Below, piece after piece: positions 3,561 through 63,375 of a stretch of 64,000 bases of DNA. A model generated the notes under the pieces. That model saw only the letters and a list, made by a program, of their open reading frames with translations, was not told the origin of the DNA and searched no databases. Both the position numbers and the translations under genes were made by a program. This DNA is from an uncultured Coriobacteriia bacterium (GTDB lineage: Bacteria; Actinomycetota; Coriobacteriia; Coriobacteriales; QAMH01), in assembly GCA_949879855.1 (NCBI GenBank), contig CATLBX010000002.1:1448-65447 (forward strand), read 5' to 3'. Positions within the stretch are counted from its first letter, which is position 1. The number at the start of each line of letters is the position of its first letter.

Positions 3561-4340
3561 CTAACAGAGCTCACCGCCATCGACCACGAGATGCTGACCG
3601 GTCATGAAGCTCGATGCGTCGGACGCGAGGTAAAGCACCGCGTTGGCGCAGTCGGACACCTTGCCAGTACGACCCAGGGGAATCTTCGCCAGGACGCCAG
3701 GCGCGATCTTCTGGAAGATGTCGTCGGAGCCTTCCGGATGGGTCATGTCGGTCTCGATGAATCCGGGATACAGCGTGTTCATGCGCACGCCCTCGGGTGC
3801 CAGCAGCTTGCCGATGCAGGGCGTAAGCGCGCGGATGGCGCCCTTGGTGGCCGTGTAGGCCACGGACCCGGCTGCCTTCCAGGCGGCAAGAGATGCCACG
3901 GGGATGATCGCGCCGACCTTGTTCTTGGCGCATTCCTGCCAGCCATACTTGATCATGAACATGACACCGTCGAGGTTGATGCCCAGGACCTTGCGCCAGT
4001 TGTCCGTATCGAATGCCGTGCTCAAGCCGCCCGAGAGGGACAGTCCCGAAATACCCGCCGAAAGCACCATGATGTCAAGACGCCCGAATCGCGCGACGCA
4101 GGCCTCGACGGCTGCCTTGCAGTCCTCCTCGCTGGAGACGTCCGTAACGCGATAGGCGGCCTCGCCGCCCGCTTCCTCGATCTCCTTCACTGCCGCAATG
4201 AGCTTGTCTTCGCGGCGCGCTGTGAGAAACACCTTGGCACCGTGCTCGGCGAGCACCTTGGCCGACTCGTTGCCGATACCATGAGAGCTGGCACCGGTAA
4301 TGAGCGCGACCCTCCCTGTAAGGTCAAATGGGTTGTCCAT
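3561..4340 (-). CDS. Short-chain dehydrogenase/reductase
   Basis: ALITGASSHGIG, YTATKGAI, RMNTLYPGFIETDM, SFMTGQHLVVDGG. Confidence 0.93.
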   Translation of the reverse strand: MDNPFDLTGRVALITGASSHGIGNESAKVLAEHGAKVFLTARREDKLIAAVKEIEEAGGEAAYRVTDVSSEEDCKAAVEACVARFGRLDIMVLSAGISGLSLSGGLSTAFDTDNWRKVLGINLDGVMFMIKYGWQECAKNKVGAIIPVASLAAWKAAGSVAYTATKGAIRALTPCIGKLLAPEGVRMNTLYPGFIETDMTHPEGSDDIFQKIAPGVLAKIPLGRTGKVSDCANAVLYLASDASSFMTGQHLVVDGGELC

Positions 4341-10540: not shown

Positions 10541-10780
10541 ATGCCCCAGCTTTCGCTCTACCTCACCGACGATGCGGCAAGCATCCTACGCGAAGACGCA
10601 AAGCGTTCCGAACAATCTGTGTCCCGCTATGTCTCCGGCTTGGTCATCGATCGACACAATCACGCCTCTGCCTGGCCGGACGGATACTGGGAGTCTGTCT
10701 ACGGCTCCCTGAAAGACCCGTCGTTCACGGTCCCGCCCGAGCTTGACCCCGCGCTCGATGGCCCGCTCCCCGAGTTCTAG
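10541..10780 (+). CDS. vapB: VapB-like antitoxin (RHH-like N-terminus)
   Basis: GGAGG RBS; MPQLSLYLTDD...SVSRYV; acidic tail; directly upstream of a PIN toxin. Confidence 0.75.
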   Translation: MPQLSLYLTDDAASILREDAKRSEQSVSRYVSGLVIDRHNHASAWPDGYWESVYGSLKDPSFTVPPELDPALDGPLPEF

Positions 10781-23723: not shown

Positions 23724-23756
23724 AATGAGACAAATACCCTGTGTATTTGTCTCATT
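23724..23756. repeat. Family A REP; contains the fabF stop
   Basis: Perfect copy; TCA at 23752-23754 is the fabF TGA. Confidence 0.95.
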
Positions 23757-29448: not shown

Positions 29449-30861
29449 ATGTACCTATACGAAGAACAGGACTGGACCAGCTTCACATGGGATGACGAGG
29501 TCATTATCCCGCTGCTTTCCAGCGTGCGTTTTCTGCAGGGCTCCTTTCTGGCGCGCATCGAATCCCTTGGTTTCGAAACAAGTTCGCAGATAGAAGTCGT
29601 TGCCGTCTCGAATGAGGTCGTCGCTTCCTCGCAAATCGAGGGTGTCAAATTCGATACCGAGGAAGTGCGCTCGTCGGTGGCCAGGAATTTGGGAATCGAT
29701 CGCCCTGGTGCTCCAAAACCAACAGCCGCCGTGGACGGAGCAGTCTCAATCATCATTAACGCGACGCAAGATTACGAAAAGCCCCTAACCTACGAACGCC
29801 TCTGCGCTTGGCATGAGGCGCTGTTCCCCGCTGGCTATGGCGAGCTTTACAAGATTGACGTTGGGCAATATCGCAAAGGTCCCATGAGCGTGGTGAGCGG
29901 CTCCATCGGACATGAGAAGACGCATTACGAGGCTCCCGCGGCAGGTCGTGTTCCTGCCCTTATGGAGGATTTCCTCGAGTGGTTCAATGACGGCGGCATG
30001 GAGCCCCTAATCAAGGCGGCGATTGCGCACCTCTGGTTCCTGACAATCCATCCTTTCGATGACGGAAACGGCCGCATTGCCCGCGCGATTACCGAAATGC
30101 TGCTAGCGCGTTCCGATCATAGTTCACGCAGATACTACAGTCTCGCTTCTCACATCCTTGCACACAGGAAGGACTATTACGTTGCAATTGAGACAGCCGA
30201 AAAGGGATCTAGCGACGTGACCACCTGGATAGCCTGGTTCCTCAAGGCGCTACATGGCGCACTGGAGGAGAGCGAGGCATCAGTATCCGAAGTGCTTCAA
30301 CGGGATGCATGGTGGCATAGGGCAGCAGGCATAAAGCTCAACAAACGCCAGAAAAAGATGCTCCAACTTCTGCTGGATGATTTTCAGGGCAAGCTCACAT
30401 CCGGAAAGTGGGCGAAGATCTGCAAGGTCTCGAGCGACACGGCCCTGCGTGATATCAATGATCTTGTTAAGAAGGGTCTCCTCAAACGCGACGAGAGCCG
30501 CGGCGGAAGAAGCACGTCGTATTTGCTGGTTTCGGAAAATGGGGTGGTGGCTAACACGTCGTTGACTCAACAGCGTGTTATTAAGTCAATCGCCGACATA
30601 GCCGCACGCTTTCCGGGAATCGAACGCGCGTGGTTGTTTGGCTCTTTCGCGCGAAACCAGCAAACACCGGATAGCGACATAGATATCAGGCTTGAGCTCA
30701 AGAAGAACGCGAGGTTTAACCTGCATGACCTCGCCTCCTTCTCTAAAATGATAGAGCAGGCGACTGGCAAAGAGTGCGACGTGATCACATCGCGAACGAT
30801 AAAGAGCGAGTCGCTTGCACAGGCTATCGAACGAGACGGAGTATGTGCGTATGAGCGCTAA
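29449..30861 (+). CDS. DUF4172-Fic-wHTH protein fused to a C-terminal minimal nucleotidyltransferase (MNT)
   Basis: HPFDDGNGRIAR; CKVSSDTALRDI wHTH; then AWLFGSFARNQQTPDSDIDI. Confidence 0.85.
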   Translation: MYLYEEQDWTSFTWDDEVIIPLLSSVRFLQGSFLARIESLGFETSSQIEVVAVSNEVVASSQIEGVKFDTEEVRSSVARNLGIDRPGAPKPTAAVDGAVSIIINATQDYEKPLTYERLCAWHEALFPAGYGELYKIDVGQYRKGPMSVVSGSIGHEKTHYEAPAAGRVPALMEDFLEWFNDGGMEPLIKAAIAHLWFLTIHPFDDGNGRIARAITEMLLARSDHSSRRYYSLASHILAHRKDYYVAIETAEKGSSDVTTWIAWFLKALHGALEESEASVSEVLQRDAWWHRAAGIKLNKRQKKMLQLLLDDFQGKLTSGKWAKICKVSSDTALRDINDLVKKGLLKRDESRGGRSTSYLLVSENGVVANTSLTQQRVIKSIADIAARFPGIERAWLFGSFARNQQTPDSDIDIRLELKKNARFNLHDLASFSKMIEQATGKECDVITSRTIKSESLAQAIERDGVCAYER

Positions 30862-31228
30862 GAAGAGCGAGCTCGGGCGGATCCAGGAAGTGTATGACAT
30901 CGTCATAAAGACGCGCGCGCAGATAGCGAATACGCAGTTCACCAAGGAGCGCTTCATTAACCCACCTAATGACGCAGATGATCTTATGGCGGAAGGAATA
31001 CTTAATCGTGTTCTCCGGCTTACTGAAGAGCTGGGCAGCATAGAAGACGCTACTGCACAGAAGCACTCGCTTAACGATAAAGGTGCTCGCGGCATCCGCA
31101 ATCGGCTTGCACACGCCTATGGCGAGGTTGATCGCGAGGTCGTATGGGACGTCATTGAAAATGACTTCGATGAAATCCTCGAAGGCTGCAAGGCATACTG
31201 TGAGGATATGGGAGTGGAGATCGAGTGA
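30851..31228 (+). CDS. HEPN/DUF86 (HepT-like) RNase toxin
   Basis: IRNRLAHAYGEVD (RX4HXY), VWDVI; overlaps the MNT stop. Confidence 0.88.
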   Translation: MSAKKSELGRIQEVYDIVIKTRAQIANTQFTKERFINPPNDADDLMAEGILNRVLRLTEELGSIEDATAQKHSLNDKGARGIRNRLAHAYGEVDREVVWDVIENDFDEILEGCKAYCEDMGVEIE

Positions 31229-31345
31229 GGCTCGCAGCTTTGCGGGATATCAACAACATCATTGCGAAGAGGGACGCTGAAAAGAGAAGCATGCCATATC
31301 TGCTGGTGAGAAGACCAGTCGTCCCCCTCAATCTATAATGCCCTT

Positions 31346-32251
31346 ATGCACATGAAGAGAAAACAGCACTATCTTCCTAAGTTTTATCTTAAGCACTTTG
31401 CTATGCCGAATAACCAGCTTTGGTGCTACAGACGCTCCGCAAACCGTTTTATAAGCAATATTAATGACATCTGTCGTCACGGAAGCCTTTATGAGGCAAG
31501 AAGCTCGAGTTCCCATTGTCCTGGCAAATTCGTAAACCCAAACTATATTGAAAATGCATTGAGCAAGAAGGAGGCGGGGCTTGCCTGCGATTATGAATAC
31601 TTTTTAGACTCCTGTACTTGCCAAGATTTTTCTAATCCTCGCTTCCAGAAATCACTCAGTACAATCTCTCAGCTACCTGGATTCTTTATTGAGCGCCAGC
31701 CGTATTCAATAGAAAACTATCGTGAAATGTCCAACGAGCTCGCCAGCGAATTCAATGACAGGGACGTTCTTTCGGAAAACGATTTGTCGCTTTGCAAAAA
31801 ACAAGGCTATGAAAACGAATTGCCTGCGATGATTCATCACTATATTGTGCAGGAAACAATTATAAATTCAGATAAGAGTAATCTTCCGGTCCACAGATTT
31901 TCGAAAGCCCTGCAATCGCTCAGCCTTTTTGTTGTCGAGGCTCCAGTCGCAACACAGTTTATTTCTTGTTCTTGTCCTGTATGCATCACTCTGGAAACGA
32001 ATGACTATACAAGGATACGTCAAGCGTTTTTTCCTTTATCTAATAGATACTGTGCGGTGTTCACCAAAGGAGAAAGCTCTTGGGGAGGAACAAGCATGGC
32101 AACACGCAGTGATGTGGCTACCATAAATCGACAGCTTCTTTTAGGCGCACCTTTATGGACCACAGCATTTTCGCGAAACGAATTCCCCCTAGCAAAAGCG
32201 CAGACAGCCTATGAGCTCTCTGGTTGTCCAACACCCTCACTGTGTTCCTAG
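31346..32251 (+). CDS. DUF4238 domain protein
   Basis: KQHYLPKFYLKHF N-terminal motif, FFPLSNRY; AT-rich. Confidence 0.75.
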   Translation: MHMKRKQHYLPKFYLKHFAMPNNQLWCYRRSANRFISNINDICRHGSLYEARSSSSHCPGKFVNPNYIENALSKKEAGLACDYEYFLDSCTCQDFSNPRFQKSLSTISQLPGFFIERQPYSIENYREMSNELASEFNDRDVLSENDLSLCKKQGYENELPAMIHHYIVQETIINSDKSNLPVHRFSKALQSLSLFVVEAPVATQFISCSCPVCITLETNDYTRIRQAFFPLSNRYCAVFTKGESSWGGTSMATRSDVATINRQLLLGAPLWTTAFSRNEFPLAKAQTAYELSGCPTPSLCS

Positions 32252-32429
32252 TCCCCAGTCAAACTGCGACAAACTGATATTTCTTCACAAACCATATGAT
32301 TAACGCAGCAAACCGGCATTTGAAGCTACATACGTGGGGTTTCGTCGAATGCGTTTATGCACCAGAAAAATATGATACGTTTAGGCGCAACATACATAAG
32401 TATTACTTAAAACCGCTAGGGAACTCGTC

Positions 32430-35357
32430 ATGCAGCATTCCATGAACATCGATAGGTCAACGAACGAGCTTGAATACAGCGCCGTCGATTTTGCCGAAAG
32501 CCTAAAAGCGAGCTTCATTGGCGCAGACAAGCCCGCTGATGAGCGCTATGCTCCTCGCATTCTGACCAACGACAAAAGTTCTGGAACCGACGTTCTCTCA
32601 ATCCTGAAACGCGAACTCGTCGATTGTGTCTCCTTTGATTTCTCCGTTGCCTTTGTCACAGCTGGTGGCATCCAGATATTGGTCGATATTCTCCGCATGA
32701 TGGAGACTCGCGGCATACCCGGAAGAATCCTTGTTTCGACATACTTAAATTTCAACGATCCAGCGGCCCTCTCCAAACTGCTTGAATTTGGCAACATTGA
32801 AACACGTGTCTACCAGGGCGAAATGCATGCCAAAGGTTACTTCTTCAATAAAGAGCAGCTTTCGACAATCGTGATAGGGAGTTCGAATCTCACGCAAAAG
32901 GCGCTCACCTGCAACAAAGAATGGAACGTGTTGTTCCGGTCCTTTGGTGATGGAGAAATGCTCGGTCAAGTACGCAGGGAGTTTGAGAACCTTTGGGATT
33001 CCGATGACACCGCCTTGCTGACAGATTCCTGGATCGATAAATACCGTGACTATCTGGCTGCAAGTACGCTCGACGCGAACCCAAAGCAGATACAGCAAAA
33101 GGCGTTCTCTATAGAAGAATCATCAGCGCTATCTCGGCCCCGTTCTACTAACGAAATTGTTCCCAACAAGATGCAAGCCCAGGCCCTTGAAGCTCTGGCA
33201 GCACTTCATGGCAGAAACGAACATCGTGCGCTTCTCGTTTCGGCAACGGGCACAGGCAAGACGTATCTTTCTGCGCTCGACGTAAGAGCGTGCCATCCAA
33301 AACGCGTTTTGTTCATTGCCCATCGCAAGCGCATTCTTTCAGCCTCCATGAAGAGCTTCGAACGCGTGCTCGGTTCAAGGTACACATACGGCATCTACGG
33401 GGAAAGTTCGTATTGCAAAGACACGACCTGCGTCTTCGCCATGGTCACAGCTCTTTCGAAGCACCTTGAGGAATTCGACCCGCATGAATTCGACTACGTC
33501 ATCATTGACGAAGCACACAGGACAGGTGCACAGAGCTATCAAAAGATACTCGACTATTTTGAGCCCCGGTTCTTTTTGGGAATGACTGCAACGCCCTCAC
33601 GTACAGATGGCTACGACGTGTATGGCCTATTCAATCATGTAATCGCCTATCGAATCACTCTGCAAGATGCGCTCGATAATGAAATGCTTGCTTCTTTTCA
33701 CTACTTTGGAATCGCCGACCTGGACATTGAGGATGAAGAAACAGATGATTTCTCGCTCTTCGCAAAGCTAACCTCGGAGGAACGAGTACGTCATGTGGCC
33801 GCTATGATCGAGGAGTATTCTGTGCTTAAAGAAGGTAGGCGCGGCCTCATCTTTTGCTCTCGAAACGAAGAAGCAGCCGAACTTTCCAAAAAGCTCAACG
33901 ACATGGGCTATCGAACGTGCGCTATCTCTGGAGAAACCTCTGAAGATTCGCGAAACAAGACCATTGCTCAGCTAGAATCAGGTGCACTCGAGTACATCTT
34001 GTCCGTGGACATTCTCAATGAGGGTATTGACATCCCCTCCCTCAACCAAATCATCATGCTGCGACGCACAGATTCGACAATTGTATTTACGCAGCAGCTT
34101 GGCCGCGGGCTTCGCAAGACAGCCGACAAGGAGTACACGCTCGTCCTTGATTTCATAGGAAATTACCAAAACAACTTCCTGATCCCCATGGCCCTTTCAG
34201 GCGATAGGACATACAACAAAGACACGCTTCGAAAAGTTGTCAAAGAAGGAAGCACGATTATCCCAGGCGCCTCTACAATCTCCTTTGATGAGATATCTGA
34301 AAAACGCATCTTCAGAGCTCTCGAAGAGGGCCGCTTCAGCGACACGAAGCTCATACGAGGCGAATACGAAAACCTGAAGCAGATTCTAGGACGTATCCCG
34401 ACCCTCATTGATTTTGATGAAAACGAGGCCATGGACCCTATGATCCTCATCAGGAAATTCGGATCCTACGCGGCTTTCCTGCAAAAGTATGAAGAAGACT
34501 ATGCTGGAAAATTCGACACCAGAAAGCTTAATGCGCTCAAGTTCATCTCTACGAAGATTGCCACCGGAAAACGCGCTGAGGACCTTATTGTGCTCAAGAA
34601 GCTCGTTGAAAAGAACGACACAAGCCACTGCACATATGAGCCTCGAGACAAAATGGCGGCAGAGACCATATCAGTCGCCCGCATGCTCGGAGGCCAGTAT
34701 TCGAAGACGGGGGAAGAGCTCACCGTTTTCGAGAATGGGATATTTGTTCTTGCACCATGGTTTGCAGGGGCCTTGTCAGACATTTCTTTCCGTGCAGCCG
34801 TTCTTGATGTCATTGCGTTTGGATTACGTCGAAACGCTCAGCTCTATTCGAAGCTTTATAAAGACACGGACTTCGTTTTGTACGAAAAGTACACGCGCGA
34901 GGAAATATGTCGTCTGCTGCGCTGGGAAAAGGAACCGAATTATCAGAATATCGGCGGCTACTTCTACGATGAAAGGACCAACACCTTCCCAGTGTTCATC
35001 GATTATGAAAAAGATCCGACTATCAGCATCACTACACAATATGAAGACAGATTCATATCGGAAAACAGGCTCATAGCTATCTCGAAAAGCAAGCGCACGC
35101 TGGAGTCGCCCGAGATTAAGCGCCTCATGAACAATACGACTAATAAGATGCGCTGCTTTCTGTTTATGCGCAAGAACAAGGACGATGCGGACCAGGGCAA
35201 GGAGTTCTACTTCCTTGGCGAGATGCATCCAACAGGGGAGTTTAAAGAAATCACCATGGCCGACGGGGCCACAAGGGCTGTCGAAATAGGATATGAGCTC
35301 GAAGAGCCGGTGCGCGCAGATCTATACGATTACCTGACGACGAACCTGGATGAGTAG
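32430..35357 (+). CDS. PLD nuclease-SF2 helicase-DUF3427 protein, SauUSI-like type IV restriction enzyme
   Basis: MHAKGY...GSSNLT, SATGTGKT, DEAH, NEGIDIP, QQLGRGLR, C-terminal YTREEI domain; 975 aa. Confidence 0.88.
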   Translation: MQHSMNIDRSTNELEYSAVDFAESLKASFIGADKPADERYAPRILTNDKSSGTDVLSILKRELVDCVSFDFSVAFVTAGGIQILVDILRMMETRGIPGRILVSTYLNFNDPAALSKLLEFGNIETRVYQGEMHAKGYFFNKEQLSTIVIGSSNLTQKALTCNKEWNVLFRSFGDGEMLGQVRREFENLWDSDDTALLTDSWIDKYRDYLAASTLDANPKQIQQKAFSIEESSALSRPRSTNEIVPNKMQAQALEALAALHGRNEHRALLVSATGTGKTYLSALDVRACHPKRVLFIAHRKRILSASMKSFERVLGSRYTYGIYGESSYCKDTTCVFAMVTALSKHLEEFDPHEFDYVIIDEAHRTGAQSYQKILDYFEPRFFLGMTATPSRTDGYDVYGLFNHVIAYRITLQDALDNEMLASFHYFGIADLDIEDEETDDFSLFAKLTSEERVRHVAAMIEEYSVLKEGRRGLIFCSRNEEAAELSKKLNDMGYRTCAISGETSEDSRNKTIAQLESGALEYILSVDILNEGIDIPSLNQIIMLRRTDSTIVFTQQLGRGLRKTADKEYTLVLDFIGNYQNNFLIPMALSGDRTYNKDTLRKVVKEGSTIIPGASTISFDEISEKRIFRALEEGRFSDTKLIRGEYENLKQILGRIPTLIDFDENEAMDPMILIRKFGSYAAFLQKYEEDYAGKFDTRKLNALKFISTKIATGKRAEDLIVLKKLVEKNDTSHCTYEPRDKMAAETISVARMLGGQYSKTGEELTVFENGIFVLAPWFAGALSDISFRAAVLDVIAFGLRRNAQLYSKLYKDTDFVLYEKYTREEICRLLRWEKEPNYQNIGGYFYDERTNTFPVFIDYEKDPTISITTQYEDRFISENRLIAISKSKRTLESPEIKRLMNNTTNKMRCFLFMRKNKDDADQGKEFYFLGEMHPTGEFKEITMADGATRAVEIGYELEEPVRADLYDYLTTNLDE

Positions 35358-39071: not shown

Positions 39072-39623
39072 ATGTCAACTGATTTCATCGCCATCGGGCA
39101 GCGCATCCAGGGCATTCGCGAGGCCTGCGACGTCACGCGCGAGGACATGGCAGCCGACCTCGACGTCGATCTGGAGACCTACACCAAGTGGGAGGAGACC
39201 GGCGCCGACGTGCCCATCTCGGCCATCTATCACATGGCCAACCGCTTCGGCATCGAGTTCACCGAGATCCTGACGGGCAAGTCGGGACACCTCGACACCT
39301 TCCATCTCATCAAGGCGGGCGAGGGCCGCGAGGTCGACCGCATCCCCGGCTACCACTTCGAGGACCTGGCCTGGCGCTTCACGCAGAAGGACTTCCAGCC
39401 GCTGCTCGTTACGCTTGACCCCCACGACGAGCCCGCAGAGCTCGTCGACCACCGCGGCCAGGAGTTCAACTACATCCTCGAGGGTTCCATCGTCTTCACC
39501 TTCGACGACCGCGAAATCATCCTCGATGCGGGTGATTCCATCTTCTTCAATCCGGAGCACATGCACGGGCAGCGCTGCAACAGCGATGTGCCCGCCAAGT
39601 TCCTCACCATCATCAGCGAATGA
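39072..39623 (+). CDS. XRE HTH + cupin regulator
   Basis: IGQRIQGIRE HTH; HRGQEFNYILEG...GDSIFFNPEHMHG. Confidence 0.92.
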   Translation: MSTDFIAIGQRIQGIREACDVTREDMAADLDVDLETYTKWEETGADVPISAIYHMANRFGIEFTEILTGKSGHLDTFHLIKAGEGREVDRIPGYHFEDLAWRFTQKDFQPLLVTLDPHDEPAELVDHRGQEFNYILEGSIVFTFDDREIILDAGDSIFFNPEHMHGQRCNSDVPAKFLTIISE

Positions 39624-39651
39624 GACAAATACACAGGGTATTTGTCTCATT
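39619..39651. repeat. Family A REP; contains the XRE-cupin stop
   Basis: AATGAGACAAATAC-ACAGG-GTATTTGTCTCATT; TGA at 39621-39623. Confidence 0.95.
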
Positions 39652-44929: not shown

Positions 44930-44964
44930 AATGAGACAGATTTGTCTGACCAATCTGTCTCATT
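44930..44964. repeat. 35-bp REP variant A'
   Basis: AATGAGACAGAT-TTGTCTGACCA-ATCTGTCTCATT. Confidence 0.9.
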
Positions 44965-46288: not shown

Positions 46289-46321
46289 AATGAGACTACT
46301 ACCCCGTGTATTTGTCTCATT
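46289..46321. repeat. Degenerate family A REP; contains the serC stop
   Basis: AATGAGACTACTAC-CCCGT-GTATTTGTCTCATT; TCA at 46317-46319. Confidence 0.9.
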
Positions 46322-47396
46322 TGTTGTTGGCTTCGAACTCACCCATGAAATCGACGAGAGCCTGGACGCCCTCGATGGGCATAGCGTTGTAGATGCTCGC
46401 ACGCATGCCACCCACGCTGCGATGGCCCTTGATATTGACCAGGCCGGCGGCGGTCGCCTCGGCGATGAACTTCTTGTCGAGCTCCTCGTCGCCCGTGACG
46501 AAGGGGACGTTCATGATGGAGCGGTCCTCGGGCACGACCGTGCCCTTGAAGAGCTCGCTCTGGTCGAGGAAGTCATAGAGCAGCTTGGCCTTGGCCTCGT
46601 TGCGCTCCTTCATGGCCTCGAGGCCACCGAGCTCCTTGATCCACTTGAACACGAGGCCGCACACGTAGATGCCATAGCACGGCGGCGTGTTGTAGAGGCT
46701 ACCGGCATCGGCCTGCGTCTTGAAGCGCAGCATCGTGGGCACGCCGGGCAGGTCGTCCGGGATGAGGTCCTCGCGCACGATGACGATCTGCACGCCGGAG
46801 GGACCCACGTTCTTCTGCACGCCCGCGTGGATGAGACCGTACTTGCTCACATCCACCGGCTCGGACAGGAACATCGAACTCTGGTCGGCCACGAGCACAT
46901 GGCCCTTGGTGTTGGGCAGCTCGTGAATGCGGTTACCCTGGATGGTCTCGTTCTCGCAGATGTAGACATAGGACGCGTCATCGCGGATGTCGAGGTCGGA
47001 GAGGTCGGGGATGCTCGAGAAGTTGTCGTCGGCACCAGTCGCCACGACCTTGGGGTCACCCAGGATCTCGGCCTCCTTGAGCGCCTTCTTCGACCAGCTG
47101 CCCGTGACGATGTAGTCGGCCTTGCCATTGGTGGCGAGGTTCATGAACACCGATGCGAACAGCAGCGAGTCACCGCCCTGCAGGAAGAGCACCTTGTAGT
47201 TGTCCGGAATGTTCATGAGCTCGCGCAGGTCGGCCTCGGCCTCGGTAATGATCTTGGTGAAAGCCGCGGAGCGATGGCTCATCTCCATGACGGACATGCC
47301 GCAGCCCTCGTAATCGAGCATCTCGTCTGCGGCCTGTTGCAGGACCTCCTCGGGGAGTACCGCCGGACCGGCGGAAAAGTTGTACACGCGTGCCAT
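46317..47396 (-). CDS. serC: Phosphoserine aminotransferase
   Basis: YNFSAGPAVLP, EMSHRS, AGVQKNVGP, LYNTPP, GHRSVGGMRASIYNA. Confidence 0.97.
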   Translation of the reverse strand: MARVYNFSAGPAVLPEEVLQQAADEMLDYEGCGMSVMEMSHRSAAFTKIITEAEADLRELMNIPDNYKVLFLQGGDSLLFASVFMNLATNGKADYIVTGSWSKKALKEAEILGDPKVVATGADDNFSSIPDLSDLDIRDDASYVYICENETIQGNRIHELPNTKGHVLVADQSSMFLSEPVDVSKYGLIHAGVQKNVGPSGVQIVIVREDLIPDDLPGVPTMLRFKTQADAGSLYNTPPCYGIYVCGLVFKWIKELGGLEAMKERNEAKAKLLYDFLDQSELFKGTVVPEDRSIMNVPFVTGDEELDKKFIAEATAAGLVNIKGHRSVGGMRASIYNAMPIEGVQALVDFMGEFEANNK

Positions 47397-47534
47397 GTGA
47401 GTCAGCTTCCTTTCAACCTGAATATGCGAGCGGACTTGCAGTTTAAGCAAGTCCGCTTTCACATCATAGCAGGTTGTGACTGGCACGAATGTAGCATTAC
47501 GCACAAATGGCCAGATGGGCACCCGCGTGAATAC

Positions 47535-47560
47535 ATGGAGCGCAATTGCTCGCGCTCCAT
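47535..47560 (-). terminator. Hairpin just after the hpf stop
   Basis: ATGGAGCGC-N8-GCGCTCCAT. Confidence 0.5.
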
Positions 47561-47572
47561 ATCGCGTTACCC

Positions 47573-48148
47573 CTAGGCGTTGACGATGGGCCTGATGATG
47601 CCGTAACCGCCGTTCTTGCGATGGTAGATGACCTGGACCTGATGGGCGTCCTGGTCGAAGTAGACGAAGAAGTCATGGCCGAGCAGGTCGGTCTGCACGA
47701 GGGCGTGCTCCTCGGTCATGGGCTCCATCTCGACTTCCTTCAGGCGTACGAGCAGATCGTCGTCTTCCTCGGGCTCGGTGGGAATGACATCGGGGATGTC
47801 GAGCTCTTCGGGCTGGAGGTGACGGATGGTGCTCCTGCCGCCGCGACGCTCGACGAGACGCGTCTTGTACTTGCGCAGCTGGCGGGCGACCTTGTCGGAG
47901 GCCAGGTCGATGGCCGCGTACATGTCCTCGGCGGATTCTGCCACGCGGATGACGGCACCCTTGGCGTTGACCGTGACCTCGCAGATGGCGTTGAGCGAGA
48001 TGGCCGGGTTCTTCTCGGTGCGCAGGACGACTTCGGCGTCCATGGCGGCGCTATCGAAGACCTCGAGCGAGCGGGCGATCTTCTCGTCGACGTAATCCTT
48101 GATGGCAGGGGTGACGTTCATCTTTCGCCCTGAAACTGTAATAGCCAT
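47573..48148 (-). CDS. hpf: Long-form ribosome hibernation promoting factor (RaiA/HPF)
   Basis: ITVSGRKMNVTPAIKDYV, DMYAAID...RQLRKYK, PMTEEHA...LGHDFF...YG. Confidence 0.96.
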   Translation of the reverse strand: MAITVSGRKMNVTPAIKDYVDEKIARSLEVFDSAAMDAEVVLRTEKNPAISLNAICEVTVNAKGAVIRVAESAEDMYAAIDLASDKVARQLRKYKTRLVERRGGRSTIRHLQPEELDIPDVIPTEPEEDDDLLVRLKEVEMEPMTEEHALVQTDLLGHDFFVYFDQDAHQVQVIYHRKNGGYGIIRPIVNA

Positions 48149-48180
48149 GATAAACCTCCTTGATCGTGGGCTGACTCGTT

Positions 48181-49182
48181 CTACTCGTCGCCGGATTGCT
48201 GGCCCGCATCCTCCTCACCTGGGTCTTCCGGCGTGTCGGGATTGGGTTCGTCCGGGTTTTCGGGAGCGGGTTGCTCGCCAACGCCAAAGGCCTTCGCCGG
48301 CAGAGTTGCCAGGTCGGTCTTGCCCGCAAGCAGCGTGTCTCCGTCGGAGCCCAGCCACTTGGTCGCGATGACGCGCATGACGCCGTTCTCGTTGATGGTC
48401 TTGATGGCGGCGTTGACGCCGCTCGAAAGCGCGGAGCTCTGCGTGAGGGTCACCGCGTAGATGGGCGTGACGCAGTCTGCGCCGAGGAAGCCCATGCGGA
48501 TGACGTTCTCGTAGTTGCGCGCGAAGTAGTCGCCGATGACCGCATCGGTCACGAGGAACTTCTGCTCGCCGTTGCTAAGCGCGTCGAACGCGGCCTGCAT
48601 GGTGGGCATGGCGACGACCTTGTCGATGCCCAGGAGCTCCTGCACCTTGCTCGCGGCGGTGGTTTCGGCCTGGACGAGGATCTTGGCGGTACCGGCGTTG
48701 GCCTGCGCCGCGACGTCCTCGATGGAGACGGGGCGATTGGTGCTCAGACAGAACAGCGAGAGGCCGTCGGTCAGGTAGGGATCGCTGTAGGTGACAAGGT
48801 CGCCCGTGCCGGACTTGGTGAGCCCGAGCGCGACGTCGACCTGCTTGTTGCTGAGCGCGAAGCGGCCACTCGAACCCACGTCGATGATCTGCATGCGCAA
48901 GCCCAGTTCCTGGGCCACGGCTGCGGCGACGTCAACGTCGATGCCCACGGTCTGGTTGCTCGAGTTGGTGCCACCGTAGGGGGAGTTGCTCGTGTTGATG
49001 CCGACGGTGAGCACGCCCTCGGTGATGGTTGCCGAAGCGTCCAGCTTGGGCGTGAGGTTGCTCTCGACCTGGGTTTTGGTCTGAAGCTGGCATGCGGACA
49101 GCCCGATCACGGCGAGCATGCAGGCGGCGAGCGCCATGGCGATTGCGGATATTCCCTTGGACTTGATTTGCTTTGCGAACAT
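48181..49182 (-). CDS. Orphan family-3 substrate-binding lipoprotein
   Basis: Lipobox LSAC; LTVGIN..SPY, GIDVDVAAAVA, YSDPYL; acidic tail; no permease adjacent. Confidence 0.85.
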   Translation of the reverse strand: MFAKQIKSKGISAIAMALAACMLAVIGLSACQLQTKTQVESNLTPKLDASATITEGVLTVGINTSNSPYGGTNSSNQTVGIDVDVAAAVAQELGLRMQIIDVGSSGRFALSNKQVDVALGLTKSGTGDLVTYSDPYLTDGLSLFCLSTNRPVSIEDVAAQANAGTAKILVQAETTAASKVQELLGIDKVVAMPTMQAAFDALSNGEQKFLVTDAVIGDYFARNYENVIRMGFLGADCVTPIYAVTLTQSSALSSGVNAAIKTINENGVMRVIATKWLGSDGDTLLAGKTDLATLPAKAFGVGEQPAPENPDEPNPDTPEDPGEEDAGQQSGDE

Positions 49183-49211
49183 CTTGCTCCGTTTGTCATG
49201 GGCCAGTGGAA

Positions 49212-49460
49212 GCGCTCCTCCCAACTGACCTGGTTTTTGACCCCACACTCGCATACAGAAACTTTTGCCTGATACTATCTCACTACTCATTTTCTCGCCC
49301 GGGCCACCGTATGTGACCTTAACGGACGGTACGTCTTACCCCTAAGATGCGCCATGCTCACGTCCGGGAAACCCGCACGCTTACGTGGATCCTTTCGACC
49401 GCATCTGCCTTGGACTAGAGCCGTTTTACCAGCTCGCAACCACAGACTTGGGAGGAGCAC
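49212..49460 (-). ncRNA. raiA-motif RNA
   Basis: Closing stem GUGCUCCUCCCAA/UUGGGAGGAGCGC; in-order blocks UGUGGUUG, GAUCCACGUAAG, GAGCAUGG, CUUAG..GUAAG, GGCGAGA, AGUAGUGAGA, GCGAGUGUGGGGUCAA.ACCAGGUCA as recalled for raiA RNAs; TACACT -10 just upstream; PBP and hpf downstream. Confidence 0.88.
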
Positions 49461-49494
49461 ATCTAGTGTATCACGCAGCAGATAAACGCGTGCG

Positions 49495-51711
49495 CTAGAT
49501 TCTCCGCAAAACAAAACAATGGTGGACCTTGGCGTGACGCTCGAAATCCAACGGTATGGTCTTGTCGGTGATGTCCACGACCTGCACGCCCGCGCGTTCG
49601 ATCGTCTCCCGGTCGAGCTTGAATCCACGCAGATTACACGAGAAGACGGCGGCACCGCCACGGGTCAGCAGTCGGCTCACGCCGATGAGCAGTTCCGCGT
49701 GGTCGCGTTGCACGTCCCATCCGCGTTGGCGCATCTTCGCGGAATTCGAGAAGGTGGGCGGGTCGACGAAGATGAGGTCCCAGCGCATCTTGGTGTGCCG
49801 CGTCTGGGTGACCCACTCGACGCAATCGGCGCGCACGAACTCCTGATGGCCGTTCATGAGGCCGTTGAGCTCCATGTTGCGCTCGCCCCATTGCAGGTAG
49901 GTGTTCGAGAGGTCGACGCTCGTCGTGAACTTCGCCCCGCGTGCGGCTGCATAGACGCTGGCCGTGCAGGTGTAGGCGAAGAGGTTGAGGAAGCTCTTGC
50001 CCGCGGCGAGCTTGCCGACCAGCTCGCGCGTGTCGCGATGGTCGAGGAACAGGCCCGTGTCGAGATAGCTCGCGAGGTCCACCTCGAACAGCAGCCCGTT
50101 CTCCTGCGTAACAAGTGCCCCTGACCGGGCGAATGAGACAGATGTGTCTGACCAAACTGTCTCATTTCTTGCGTATTGCGAACCGCCCTTGGCCCGAACG
50201 CGACGCTTCACGAAGATGTCGTCCGCGGGAACATCGAGCACGACGCTCGCGATGTTGAGGGCATCGGTCATGCGGCGCGCGGCCTTGGCCGCATCGATGT
50301 TCTTGGGGGGCACGTACTCGGCAACGTGCACGAGCCGCCTGCCCGCATCCTTGCCCGCTCCCTCGTAGAGGTCGATGGCCATGTTGTAGTCGGGAAGGTC
50401 GGCATCGTAGATGCGAAAGGCCGAGACCTTGTTCTTGGCAGCCCATTTGCGGCGATGCTTGAAGACCTTGTTGAGGCGGTCGGCGAATTGCTGGGCTCCC
50501 GCGTCGTAAACCGCGATGTCGCAATCGCGCACACTCACCTGCGTCCGTTGCCCCGCGCTCGCATGCAGGTCGAAGAGCGCGATATCGCAGGGGGCAGAGC
50601 CGTTCATGCACGCAAAGCCCTCGCTGCGCTCCATGCCCAGATAGGCATCGGCATCTTGGCTACCCACGAGCATGACGGCCGCATCGAGCTGCTTGTAGCC
50701 AAGGAGCTGGCGTGCAAGCTGCGCATAGCATGCGGGCAACGTCGCCTCGGGAACCTCGGCGGTAACGAAGAGGCAGCTCGCGAACACGCCGCGAACATCA
50801 TGATGTCGTGCGAGCGCGGTATCTAGCGCGTTCTCGTCTGCCAGGAACTCGATGAGGGATGCCACGGCGGCGGCCTTGGCCCGGGCTTGCGCGCAGGCTA
50901 TCTCTCGTTCGCGCGCGTCCGTCGCGTATATCGCGACCGCGCGCCGCCCCTCTTGCGCACGGGCGTCGGCTGCATCGAGGGCGGCTTCCCAAAGCCCCTC
51001 GTCGTGACCGAACCACCCGGCAAAGCCCCAGTTGGAGCGCGTGATACCCGGAGCTATGTCGGCTGCTATCAAGGCGGCCTCGATGGCGAGGGTGCCGGCA
51101 GCGGCCATGCTATCCACGAGCACTTCGCCACGGCGCGCGCGTTCGGGCCAGCCGATTGCAAGCAGCATGCCCGCCGCAAGCGTCTCGTGCACGAACGGGG
51201 AGGTGCCTCGCGCGGCTTCGCGATAGCCGCGGTCCTCCAGCGACGTTCCCGACAGGTCGAGGTAGATGGTCGCGCGGTTGCCACGCAGGTTCACCTGGAT
51301 GCGCAGATCGGGATGCTGGGCGTCAACGTCCGGACGTTCGCCGCGCACGTCACGCAGCCGGTCGCAGATGGCGTCCTTCACGCGCAACGCCGTATAGCGG
51401 GTGTCGCGCAACTGGTCGTTGGTGCCACGGGCACTCACGGCGATGGTCGCCCCCACGGCGACGTAATCCTCCCAGGCAAGCTCGTGCACGCCCGCGTAGA
51501 TACTATCGGAATCCGACGCCTTGACGCGTTCGACCACCAGGAGGATGCGACTCGCGACACGCGACCACAGCAGGGCGGTGTAGATCTGCTCCAGGTTCGC
51601 CGTAAACGCGACACCACCGGTCAGGGGTCGAACCTCGTCCATTCCGAGGTCACGTAGCTCCTGACCGAGAATCGGCTCGAGCCCGCTGCCGCATGTCGCG
51701 AAGAGCTCCAT
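49495..51711 (-). CDS. rlmL: Bifunctional 23S rRNA methyltransferase RlmKL-like
   Basis: THUMP, YLDLSG, YRIYDADLPDY-like FRIYDADLPDY, YLDTGLFLDHR, LNLFAYT, DPPTFS. Confidence 0.92.
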   Translation of the reverse strand: MELFATCGSGLEPILGQELRDLGMDEVRPLTGGVAFTANLEQIYTALLWSRVASRILLVVERVKASDSDSIYAGVHELAWEDYVAVGATIAVSARGTNDQLRDTRYTALRVKDAICDRLRDVRGERPDVDAQHPDLRIQVNLRGNRATIYLDLSGTSLEDRGYREAARGTSPFVHETLAAGMLLAIGWPERARRGEVLVDSMAAAGTLAIEAALIAADIAPGITRSNWGFAGWFGHDEGLWEAALDAADARAQEGRRAVAIYATDAREREIACAQARAKAAAVASLIEFLADENALDTALARHHDVRGVFASCLFVTAEVPEATLPACYAQLARQLLGYKQLDAAVMLVGSQDADAYLGMERSEGFACMNGSAPCDIALFDLHASAGQRTQVSVRDCDIAVYDAGAQQFADRLNKVFKHRRKWAAKNKVSAFRIYDADLPDYNMAIDLYEGAGKDAGRRLVHVAEYVPPKNIDAAKAARRMTDALNIASVVLDVPADDIFVKRRVRAKGGSQYARNETVWSDTSVSFARSGALVTQENGLLFEVDLASYLDTGLFLDHRDTRELVGKLAAGKSFLNLFAYTCTASVYAAARGAKFTTSVDLSNTYLQWGERNMELNGLMNGHQEFVRADCVEWVTQTRHTKMRWDLIFVDPPTFSNSAKMRQRGWDVQRDHAELLIGVSRLLTRGGAAVFSCNLRGFKLDRETIERAGVQVVDITDKTIPLDFERHAKVHHCFVLRRI
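50132..50166. repeat. 35-bp REP variant A' inside the rlmKL CDS
   Basis: AATGAGACAGAT-GTGTCTGACCA-AACTGTCTCATT, read as NETVWSDTSVSF. Confidence 0.88.
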
Positions 51712-53753: not shown

Positions 53754-53786
53754 AATGAGACAAATACACAGGGTATTTGTCTCATT
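53754..53786. repeat. Family A REP between the pncB stop and DegV
   Basis: Perfect copy, 2 nt from the pncB stop. Confidence 0.95.
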
Positions 53787-60948: not shown

Positions 60949-61077
60949 TCACTCGTTTTTGCTGCGTATCTGAAGACAGCTATGGCTTACAATTACCCGC
61001 GGAGACAAGCGGGCGGGGCCGGAAGGCCTCAGTTGCACGATTTTAACCATATATATAAGGTTCTGGCTACCTCCATT

Positions 61078-61839
61078 TTGGAAACGATTAGCCCCACGCG
61101 CTGTATCGCGTGCGACGTTCCCGGCGACGTGCTTTGCCCGAGCTGCGCCTCATCCCTCCCCTTCATCGACCTGTCGCTTGCATGCCCCCGCTGCGGGGCG
61201 CCCTACGGTCGCGTGCTGTGCACCGAATGCCCCATGCCCGGCAGCGAGGAGGCATTGCTGCATCCCGAGGAGGCGGTCCCGTTTGCGCGGGCGCGGGCGG
61301 CGCTGTCGTTCGAAGGCGGTGCGAAGAAGATCATCCGCACGTACAAGGACGGCGACGAACTGCGCCTCGACGCCGTGATCGCGTCGCTGCTATGCGCCGC
61401 CATCCGGGGGAGAAATGAGACAAATACACAGGGTATTTGTCTCATTCCGCAGGTCAGTGAGCCGCTGGGAGACTGGTCACAGTGGGCAGATGCGCTGGCA
61501 TTCGTGCCGGCATCGCCCGAGGCGGTGCGACGGCGTGACTTCGACCACATGGAACGCGTGGCGATGCGCGTGGCCACGCGCACGGGGCTGCCGCTGGCGC
61601 GGTTGCTCACGAGCGAGCGCAAGACTCGCGACCAGCGGGAACTCGGCCGCGGCGAGCGCTTTGCGAATCGAAACGGGTCATTTTCGCTGGCAGCGGATGC
61701 AGCAGGCCCGATACCGCGGCGAATCATCCTCATCGACGACGTTTTCACGACGGGAGCAACGCTCTCGGCAGCATCGCGGGTACTCCTCGACGGCGGAACC
61801 GAGGAGGTGAGGGCAGTGACGTGCTGCAGGGTTTGGTGA
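61078..61839 (+). CDS. comF: ComF family protein (double zinc ribbon + PRTase); start uncertain (TTG 61078 or 61033)
   Basis: PTRCIAC...CPSC...CPRC...CTEC, IILIDDVFTTGATL. Confidence 0.88.
   Translation: METISPTRCIACDVPGDVLCPSCASSLPFIDLSLACPRCGAPYGRVLCTECPMPGSEEALLHPEEAVPFARARAALSFEGGAKKIIRTYKDGDELRLDAVIASLLCAAIRGRNETNTQGICLIPQVSEPLGDWSQWADALAFVPASPEAVRRRDFDHMERVAMRVATRTGLPLARLLTSERKTRDQRELGRGERFANRNGSFSLAADAAGPIPRRIILIDDVFTTGATLSAASRVLLDGGTEEVRAVTCCRVW
61414..61446. repeat. Family A REP in frame inside comF
   Basis: Perfect copy read as [11 protein letters not shown]. Confidence 0.95.
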
Positions 61840-61841
61840 CG

Positions 61842-61874
61842 AAGGAGACAAATACACAGGGTATTTGTCTCATT
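61842..61874. repeat. Family A REP, left flank of the RAYT gene
   Basis: AAGGAGACAAATAC-ACAGG-GTATTTGTCTCATT (one mismatch). Confidence 0.93.
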
Positions 61875-61889
61875 TTGAAAGGAGATTTC

Positions 61890-62648
61890 ATGGATCGGAA
61901 AAGGAAGGCAAGCGAAGGCAACATCTACCATGTGATTTCGCGTGGAACAGGGCGGCAGCTTATTTACGAGACCGATGATGACCGCCGCGTGTTCTTGCAT
62001 CTACTTCGTCAGACAATCGAGGAAGCTGAAATCGAGCTGTACGCATGGTGCCTCATGGGAAATCACTTTCACCTCCTCATTCATGGAGAGATGGAAAGAA
62101 TAGCTACATGCATGCGTCGTCTTTGTAGCTCTTATGCTCGGTGGTTCAATGGTCGGGCTGGCCGTGTGGGCCATTTGTTTCAAGAAAGGTTTAAGAGCGA
62201 GCCCATAGACACTGATGCTTATCTCCTTGCAGTCATTCGCTACATTCACGACAACCCCGCAAAGGCGCGCCTCGACCGGACATCGGAATACCGATGGTCA
62301 AGCTATCGTGAATACGTCGGCAAGCCGACTTTGTGCGCCACGGAGTTCGTCTTGGATATCTTCGGAGGCAAGGAAGCATTTCTGAGATTCCACGAGGAGT
62401 CAGGAAGCTCATGTGCGTGCCTTGATTTCGATGTCCCGAGAAACAAGACACGCCCAATGGATGATGACATGGCCATCGGCATAATGCATCGCGTTCTGGG
62501 GGATGTGGCACCAACGGATTTAAAGACGCTTCCCAAGAAAGCGAGAAACAAACGGCTCAGTGCGTTGAAGCAGAGTGGTCTCTCAGTACGGCAAATCGAA
62601 CGCCTCACGGGCATAGGACGCAATATAATTGCTCGTGTGCAAAAATGA
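61890..62648 (+). mobile_element. REP-associated tyrosine transposase (RAYT, Y1/HUH) with C-terminal HTH
   Basis: YHVISRG, YAWCLMGNHFHLL (HUH), GHLFQERFKS, YIHDNP (catalytic Y), YRWSSY; AAAGGAG RBS; flanked by REPs; lower GC. Confidence 0.93.
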
Positions 62649-62676
62649 GACAAATACCCTGTGTATTTGTCTCATT
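62644..62676. repeat. Family A REP, right flank of RAYT; supplies the stops of RAYT (+) and hypB (-)
   Basis: TGA 62646-62648 on +; TCA 62672-62674. Confidence 0.95.
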
Positions 62677-63342: not shown

Positions 63343-63375
63343 AATGAGACAAATACCCTGTGTATTTGTCTCATT
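63343..63375. repeat. Family A REP; contains the hypA stop
   Basis: Perfect copy; TCA 63371-63373. Confidence 0.95.

Follow-up and report, generated by a model that had tools for sequence, protein, structure and literature searches.

The raiA-motif RNA, called ModT in C. difficile, is among the most widespread large structured RNAs of bacteria without a known biochemical function, so that well-defined instances of it are of some value. The motif was defined by Weinberg et al. 2017 (PMC5737381), who found genes for RaiA and for periplasmic binding proteins downstream of it and comFC upstream, in both Bacillota and Actinomycetota. The same study doubted a role as riboswitch, reported no binding of small molecules in vitro, noted a position resembling that of a 5' untranslated region (UTR), and remarked that the specificity of the linked binding proteins could not be predicted. 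Soares et al. 2024 (PMC10861870) recorded the motif in 2,720 species, Coriobacteriia included, with ABC transporters and degV among its neighbours, and described sporulation and aggregation defects in C. acetobutylicum that were complementable in trans. ModT of C. difficile (PMC11706538) has a SigA promoter, two 3' isoforms arising through terminators and a very high abundance, and acts in trans. A cryo-electron microscopy (cryo-EM) paper of 2026 (PMC12968392) distinguished subtypes with and without the stems P2 and P8, described a conserved P1 stem and core, and reported binding of KhpA-KhpB. Within the family the RNA lies upstream of raiA/hpf in 66% of members and downstream of comFC in 74%, and for most members it is hundreds of nucleotides from the next open reading frame (ORF), which often has the opposite orientation. 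Here we analyze a copy of this RNA found in a 64,000-nucleotide stretch of DNA from an uncultured Coriobacteriia bacterium (GenBank assembly GCA_949879855.1, contig CATLBX010000002.1, positions 1,448 to 65,447), referred to as the window. An original prediction, made from the letters of the DNA, had placed a raiA-motif RNA at the head of a unit containing genes for a solute-binding protein (SBP) of lipoprotein type and for the ribosome hibernation factor HPF; the covariance-model match, the promoter and the gene order all bear this out.

The identity of the RNA was determined by scanning the whole 64-kb window with cmscan against Rfam 15 at gathering thresholds. The sole match was to RF03072 (raiA), at 49456..49216 on the minus strand, and it comprises an RNA of 241 nt belonging to the subtype with both P2 and P8. 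The match has a score of 158 bits (E 1.4e-39) and runs untruncated over positions 1-209 of the 209-position model; with a gathering score of 101.3 bits for this family, the covariance-model test that had been proposed together with the prediction was passed by a wide margin. Two insertions are present relative to the model, one of 18 nt after model position 22 and another that lengthens a variable hairpin. Each of 10 related Coriobacteriia copies is likewise a full-length match to RF03072, with scores of 139-165 bits. The nearest genomes are those of uncultured Coriobacteriia and Coriobacteriaceae, consistent with the confinement of the family to Bacillota and Actinomycetota.

Relatives were sampled by using HPF as an anchor (80 loci, one genome per species, designated here by L numbers), and the RNA was sought in these loci by iterated nhmmer, which recovered it in 10 Coriobacteriia loci and in 5 loci labelled Bacillota. 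The closest loci by HPF were from uncultured Coriobacteriia and Coriobacteriaceae (94% and 76% identity), followed by those of Atopobiaceae and Eggerthellaceae at about 50-55% identity. The window copy and the 10 related Coriobacteriia copies were aligned with MAFFT, and these 11 sequences formed the set for analysis of covariation. With our own structure, in which PK1 is treated as a pseudoknot, 95.3% of alignment cells were paired, compared to 83.8 +/- 0.9% after shuffling and 32-44% when the partners were slid; changes on both sides were found in 35 of the 71 pairs, and not one of 500 shuffles matched the real alignment on any of five measures. RNAalifold, which was blind to the Rfam model, recovered P1a, P2, the PK1 helix and P5-P8, with compensatory double changes in 33 of its 69 predicted pairs. 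P1a showed compensatory changes across loci in most of its pairs, and P6, P7 and P8 also covary among the copies. MAFFT shifted P1a by one column for L001, L021 and L006; the few P1a cells scored as unpaired are alignment artefacts, because the strands pair perfectly when anchored at their ends. This covariation, which had likewise been suggested as a check and lends the prediction strong support, indicates that the RNA is under structural selection in the Coriobacteriia lineage. That the match is a chance resemblance or the decaying relic of a raiA gene is accordingly of negligible probability: the E value applies to the full length of the model, the relatives score as highly, compensatory changes have preserved the RNA in genomes that share only 47-94% identity in HPF, the promoter described below is conserved too, and we found nothing in favour of such a reading, which these results already refute. 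The sequence at 49456..49216 (-) is thus a genuine and ordinary member of a known RNA class, in a taxon known to carry raiA, and the explanation of the locus that treats it as the Coriobacteriia orthologue of the raiA-motif RNA is, taken as a whole, very likely right.

To describe the fold, we mapped helices with the 2024 consensus and the 2026 cryo-EM structures as described in the text of the papers, each pair being checked by script, and P5-P8 were placed according to the Rfam alignment, with the P6-P7-P8 domain aligned to P6, P7 and P8 of the model. The closing stem P1 has the layout of the raiA family and canonical pairs throughout. P1a consists of 9 bp between the 5' strand UCCUCCCAA (49448..49456, minus strand) and UUGGGAGGA at 49224..49216; it is followed by a GU bulge (RNA positions 10-11), P1b of 3 bp (CUG/CAG), a GGU bulge (RNA positions 227-229) and P1c of 5 bp (UGGUU/AACCA). 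The closing stem of 13 bp initially proposed is approximately right, in that P1a and P1b together give 12 bp before P1c continues for 5 bp past the GGU bulge. The 3' strand of P1a (GGGAGGA) resembles a Shine-Dalgarno sequence and its 5' strand (UCCUCC) an anti-Shine-Dalgarno sequence; we judged this likeness meaningless because P1a covaries freely (CUCUUCUAG/CUGGAAGAG in L004) and because the bias toward a C-rich 5' strand and a G-rich 3' strand is already present in the family consensus. The block at 49216..49246 (-), which contains the P4 strand GUGG, the J4/1 segment GGUCAAA (the PK2 partner), the P1c strand AACCA, GGU, the P1b strand CAG and the 3' strand of P1a, is more strongly conserved in the family than any other block.

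The compact core of raiA RNAs, made up of P3a and P3b with an A-rich internal loop, P4 and PK1, is also found in the window RNA. P3a, P3b, the PK1 loop and the 5' strand of P4 occupy 49385..49415 (-), a region located from the written account of the cryo-EM structures and either invariant or covarying in the 11-copy alignment, and the core pairs are all canonical (P3a GUCC/GGAU, P3b GGC/GUC, P4 CCAC/GUGG). PK1 is formed by six Watson-Crick pairs between GAUGCG in the P3b loop (49405..49400) and CGCAUC at 49346..49351 on the same strand; it is 100% paired in the 11 sequences, with double changes in 2 pairs, relatives having GACGCG/CGCGUC and GACGAG/CUCGUC. A second pseudoknot, PK2 (U103-A219 and G104-C218), is pairable by analogy with the published description of the Nocardioides RNA; these positions are near-invariant and so give PK2 no backing from covariation, and L023 would have an A-C mismatch. 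AGUA occurs at RNA positions 170 and 181 within P8, as expected from the E-loop-type AGUA/GAA element of the family. Between PK1 and P6 lies the single-stranded linker UUAGGGGUAAG (49335..49345, minus strand), the proposed KhpA/KhpB site in the family. The window reads UUAGGGGUAA where the family has UUAGA(C/A)GUAA, identical at 8 of 10 positions and different at two, so that the conserved linker is recognizable. Among the relatives, five of the 10 copies share UUAGGGGUAAG with the window, L028 has UUAGGGGUUAG, and the Atopobiaceae-like copies have CUAGAAGUAAG. If the linker is indeed the KhpA/KhpB site, the window type would appear to be a lineage-specific variant of it.

The hairpin GAGCUG-GUAAAA-CGGCUC at 49418..49435 (-), RNA positions 22-39, folds at -9.9 kcal/mol. 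It had been taken for an extra element of this copy; the hairpin is real, but it corresponds to P2, the optional stem of the family that emerges between P1c and P3a. Because P2 is known in about 42% of raiA RNAs and has been resolved by cryo-EM in the Nocardioides raiA RNA (PMC12968392), the hairpin is a feature of a subtype and not a novelty. All 11 Coriobacteriia copies have P2; at its site each of the 10 relatives carries an insertion of 17-32 nt that forms a clean hairpin, the sequence of which differs each time, and double changes are found in 5 of the 6 pairs. A close counterpart of the window RNA is Ns-raiA from Nocardioides sp. Iso805N (253 nt, structure determined at 3.0 Å by cryo-EM, PMC12968392), which comes from an Actinomycetota host and belongs to the same subtype: P2 and P8 are among its full set of eight stems, and P2 has exactly the position found here. 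The window RNA differs from it in having a short P2 (6 bp with a 6-nt loop), a P7 of moderate length and peripheral stems of unrelated sequence. The C. acetobutylicum RNA (204 nt), for which knock-out and rescue in trans have been reported (PMC10861870), shares with the window RNA the core, P1 and a location upstream of a hibernation-factor gene; it differs in lacking P2 and in its spore-forming host, whose sporulation and aggregation phenotypes have no obvious counterpart in Coriobacteriia. With the family in general, ModT included, the window RNA shares the three-part stem P1a/b/c and its GU and GGU bulges, the core of P3, P4 and PK1, the linker, the AGUA/GAA element of P8, and a place upstream of hpf (raiA) with a binding-protein gene following. 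The features of the window copy all lie within the published description of raiA.

We next consider the promoter, for which the original prediction had pointed to a TACACT -10 element. This element is present at 49470..49465 on the minus strand and is preceded by TG (49473-49472), the two making up an extended -10 sequence, TGATACACT (49465..49473), that ends 8 nt before P1. All 10 related loci have an equivalent, similar to TGnTAnAnT (TATAAT without the TG in two of the loci) and ending 7-11 nt before P1; the sequence around the element is otherwise unrelated among loci. A custom scan showed TGATACACT to be the only TGnTAnnnT on the RNA strand from the stop codon of the upstream gene rlmKL to the end of hpf. 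No match to a -35 box was found ahead of TACACT, and a generic sigma-70 scan returned no promoter because that scan needs a -35 box, which is absent here. This conservation across loci argues well for a dedicated promoter, from which transcription would begin at the 5' end of P1 or immediately beside it.

The RNA is separated from the SBP gene by a spacer of 33 nt (49183..49215, minus strand) that contains a ribosome binding site (RBS), GGAG at 49190-49187, and no terminator. In this respect the window differs from the family, where the distance is typically hundreds of nucleotides, and from C. difficile, where one or more intrinsic terminators follow the RNA. The SBP gene (48181..49182, minus strand) encodes 333 amino acids with an SBP_bac_3 domain (PF00497, 62.6 bits) and a signal peptide of lipoprotein type, MFAKQIKSKGISAIAMALAACMLAVIGLSAC, with the lipobox LSAC. 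The ORF track had the gene begin at 49290, a start that the prediction had suspected to be wrong, and rightly so: the ATG at 49290 falls within P8, and the real start is the ATG at 49182, with GGAG five nucleotides upstream. This assignment is supported by L002, in which the SBP frame opens only after the RNA, and it agrees with the 333 amino acids called in NCBI GCA_037069005.1, a genome with an identical HPF. Gene calls for this start, compared across the window and L081-L084, disagree, and those of 369 amino acids (ORF track) and 357 amino acids (metagenome) both start inside the RNA. A practical point is that gene callers stretch the SBP ORF into the RNA. Downstream, 32 nt past the SBP stop codon and preceded by the RBS AAGGAGG, lies hpf (47573..48148, minus strand), which encodes a long-form ribosome hibernation-promoting factor with PF02482 (S30AE) and PF16321 (S30AE_C) domains (TIGR00741, 92.5 bits). 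The order of an SBP lipoprotein gene and then hpf behind the RNA is therefore as predicted.

The SBP gene of the window has no adjacent gene for a permease or ATPase. Its NCBIfam matches, to GlnH and to the Lys/Arg/Orn binding protein, fall far under the cutoffs, and its best matches in the PDB are amino-acid binding proteins (E 1.8e-14). By these comparisons the protein is a divergent relative of the polar-amino-acid binding proteins, and its distance from the equivalog cutoffs echoes the remark of 2017 on unpredictable specificity. Past the SBP_bac_3 domain come about 35 further residues of low complexity, acidic and rich in Pro, that form the C-terminal tail of the protein (EQPAPENPDEPNPDTPEDPGEEDAGQQSGDE, encoded at 48181-48290 of the window).

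A GC-rich hairpin, ATATGGAGCGCGAGC-AATT-GCGCTCCATGT, follows hpf at 47533..47562 (-); it has a strong fold without a U-tract, and the transcription unit probably ends here. Extended -10 motifs reappear only past this hairpin, at 47496 and 47471, ahead of serC. A terminator scan of 47300-49800, which covers the RNA, the SBP gene and hpf, found no terminator-like site on the RNA strand, and apart from the raiA promoter itself the custom scan found no TGnTAnnnT up to the end of hpf. The absence of a terminator and of a second extended -10 element, together with the hairpin after hpf and the short distance from RNA to SBP gene in most loci, makes it probable that promoter, RNA, SBP gene and hpf form a single transcription unit. 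As we picture it, transcription would start at the first nucleotide of P1 from the extended -10 promoter and would proceed through the RNA, the SBP gene and hpf to the hairpin; the stable RNA would then be freed by processing or by trimming of its 3' end to the base of P1, or would be kept at the 5' end of the SBP-hpf mRNA as a leader. Production of the RNA would in this way be tied to expression of the hibernation factor. We hold this arrangement of coupled expression, with the RNA obtained by processing or trimming or serving as a leader, to be somewhat better than an even proposition on the sequence features.

Several points weigh against a common transcript. A promoter lacking the TG extension might lie unrecognized toward the 3' end of the RNA gene, and termination that depends on Rho or does without a U-tract is possible, being common in high-GC Actinomycetota. 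In L028 the RNA is separated from the SBP gene by a hairpin and a T-run, and the spacers between RNA and SBP gene in L029 and L021 are 184-236 nt long; read-through is thus not obviously universal. These observations bear on a different arrangement, in which the RNA is an independent gene that ends at the base of P1 through a Rho-dependent or non-canonical terminator, the SBP gene and hpf have a cryptic promoter of their own, and their adjacency reflects gene order only. The RNA of C. difficile and its relatives has its own terminator or terminators, the hairpin and T-run of L028 resemble one, L029 has a T-run directly after P1 and its 184-nt spacer is able to hold a promoter, and consensus scans capture the promoters and terminators of Actinomycetota poorly. 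On the other hand, the start codon in the window follows P1 after just 33 nt, neither the spacer nor the 3' part of the RNA shows a -10-like element, and the 3' block of the RNA is under strong structural constraint, which leaves it little freedom to encode a promoter. We regard an independent RNA gene as doubtful for the window, and prefer the single transcription unit.

A location behind a promoter and shortly ahead of an ORF on the same strand is also what the window RNA shares with riboswitches and other 5'-leader RNAs. The raiA fold could in principle sense a ligand or a protein and so control transcription or translation of the SBP gene and hpf in cis. Consistent with this are the place of the window RNA in the 5' UTR position, 33 nt from the SBP start codon, the presence of a promoter ahead of the RNA and, in 9 of the 11 loci, of an SBP gene on the same strand 28-78 nt past P1, the 5'-UTR-like position noted by Weinberg et al. 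in 2017, and the type label of Rfam 15, 'Cis-reg; riboswitch'. The label is a database category contrary to the genetic evidence, since deletions in two clostridia were complemented in trans. The window RNA also differs from riboswitches and leaders in lacking an expression platform or known ligand: no expression platform and no terminator/antiterminator pair were found, the 3' strand of P1 is clear of the RBS, and from genus to genus the spacers have neither related sequences nor a shared structure. The negative binding results in vitro and the distance and frequent opposite orientation of the next ORF in most of the family, both mentioned above, argue in the same direction, and we consider cis regulation of this kind very unlikely.

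A function in trans can be proposed for the window RNA by homology, because knock-out and trans-complementation have been reported in two clostridia (PMC10861870, PMC11706538). The RNA would be abundant, very stable and probably bound by KhpA/KhpB, and would act in trans to help the transition from growth to stationary phase. We think this likely, by analogy with the clostridial RNAs alone; counting against it is that the clostridial phenotypes (sporulation, aggregation and toxin control) may not transfer to the non-sporulating Coriobacteriia. A more speculative possibility is that the raiA RNA of Coriobacteriia is an obligate 5' leader of the mRNA for a lone SBP (and for hpf in the lineage of the window), either processed out or cis-acting, and that the SBP is its functional partner. 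We assign a low probability to this idea; if true, it would connect the RNA with the detection of an amino-acid-like nutrient outside the cell as stationary phase begins.

The window copy adds no new kind of element, as P2 and the context of hpf, comFC and binding-protein genes have all been published. What is gained is comparative: Coriobacteriia have a raiA RNA with a conserved extended -10 element at a fixed distance from P1; one SBP subfamily always lies directly after the RNA, usually at 28-78 nt and without a terminator in the high-GC genomes; and the RNA, the SBP gene and (usually) comFC are gained or lost together beside hpf. The tight, terminator-free adjacency of RNA and SBP gene, combined with the fixed promoter, makes co-transcription and a role of the SBP directly testable, and non-sporulating gut Coriobacteriia offer a clean system for studying excision of the RNA from the SBP-hpf transcript and the role of the SBP.

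The genomic context of the RNA was compared with that of its relatives. Each of the 10 Coriobacteriia loci that have the RNA also has an orthologous SBP gene (23-88% identity of the product) directly after it and on the same strand. When the window is included, the SBP start lies 28-78 nt past P1 in 9 of the 11 loci and 184-236 nt past it in the other two. The gene comFC lies immediately upstream on the same strand, as confirmed with Pfam, in L029, L028, L021, L023 and L006, giving the order comFC > RNA > SBP > hpf; L004 has a comFC homologue about 0.9 kb upstream, detected by tblastn only. L023 has a second SBP gene and genes for a permease and an ABC ATPase between the SBP gene and hpf, and L024 has ORFs of matching sizes at this place. 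The remaining 25 of the 35 Coriobacteriia hpf loci are RNA-negative by iterated nhmmer and of Eggerthellaceae type (L005, L007-L020, L022, L025-L027 and L030-L035), and they have no RNA, linked SBP gene or comFC within 8 kb of hpf. The relatives with adjacent comFC suggest that comFC > RNA > SBP (> ABC transporter) > hpf is likely the ancestral layout, and the lineage of the window, L002 and L003 is likely derived, with rlmKL upstream, a lone SBP gene and comFC moved to the opposite strand.

The typical position upstream of hpf is retained in the window, where hpf lies two genes downstream of the RNA on the same strand, and degV is located three genes upstream. The upstream neighbour is rlmKL (49495..51711, minus strand), identified by Pfam domains and by NCBIfam NF008748 (735 bits) as encoding the bifunctional 23S rRNA methyltransferase, and its stop codon lies 38 nt before the RNA. 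The upstream comFC, frequent but not obligatory in the family, is missing from this position, and the window differs from the family here: comFC is found at 60982..61839 on the plus strand, about 11.5 kb from the RNA, in keeping with the estimate of about 12 kb made at the outset. The product has zinc-ribbon and phosphoribosyltransferase motifs (DZR_2 26.0 bits, Pribosyltran 26.1 bits, at or just under the cutoffs) and is 37-39% identical to the RNA-adjacent ComFC of L004 and L006. An ORF at 61203..62000 (-) was rejected as comF; it has no family match and the Ser/Arg-rich look of a wrong frame, the real comFC being on the plus strand. The layout claimed for the locus is therefore correct, and less unusual than was implied, since the links to binding-protein genes, hpf and comFC had already been published (PMC5737381, PMC10861870).

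Two observations were made in the sampled loci outside of this comparison. L036, labelled Lachnospiraceae (Candidatus Fusicatenibacter), has an SBP_bac_3 homologue (3650-4318) about 220 nt past a raiA RNA without P2 (3236-3428), which fits the cross-phylum association with binding proteins reported in 2017. L028 contains a fluoride riboswitch (RF01734, 40.3 bits) at 10579-10649, about 2 kb downstream of hpf and unrelated to the raiA RNA.

The window also contains a dispersed perfect palindrome of about 33-35 bp, with copies at 335-367, 23724-23756, 39619-39651, 44930-44964, 50132-50166, 53754-53786, 61414-61446, 62644-62676 and 63343-63375 and degenerate copies near 46290-46321 and 61840-61874. 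Two subtypes were distinguished, AATGAGACAAATACCCTGTGTATTTGTCTCATT, the loop of which occurs in either orientation, and AATGAGACAGAT..CTGTCTCATT; the 9-mer AATGAGACA occurs 20 times compared to an expectation of 0.27. Two copies flank a gene for an IS200-like Y1 transposase at 61821..62648 (+) (PF01797, E 6.8e-13), and the arrangement therefore looks like a system of repetitive extragenic palindromes (REP) with a REP-associated tyrosine transposase (RAYT). Two of the palindromes lie in frame within genes discussed above and leave the ORF open. The one in rlmKL (50132-50166) falls between domains, in a variable linker, and is missing from the orthologues in L003 and L002, and the one in comFC (61414-61446) adds about 20 residues that are absent from four orthologues. 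A separate block at 29449-35357 (+) has a low G+C content at third codon positions (0.43-0.62, compared to about 0.8-0.9 elsewhere) and encodes a protein with Fic/DOC and nucleotidyltransferase domains, a DUF4238 protein and a 975-residue PLD-nuclease/ResIII-helicase/DUF3427 protein; horizontal acquisition of a defence or toxin island is the probable origin of this block.

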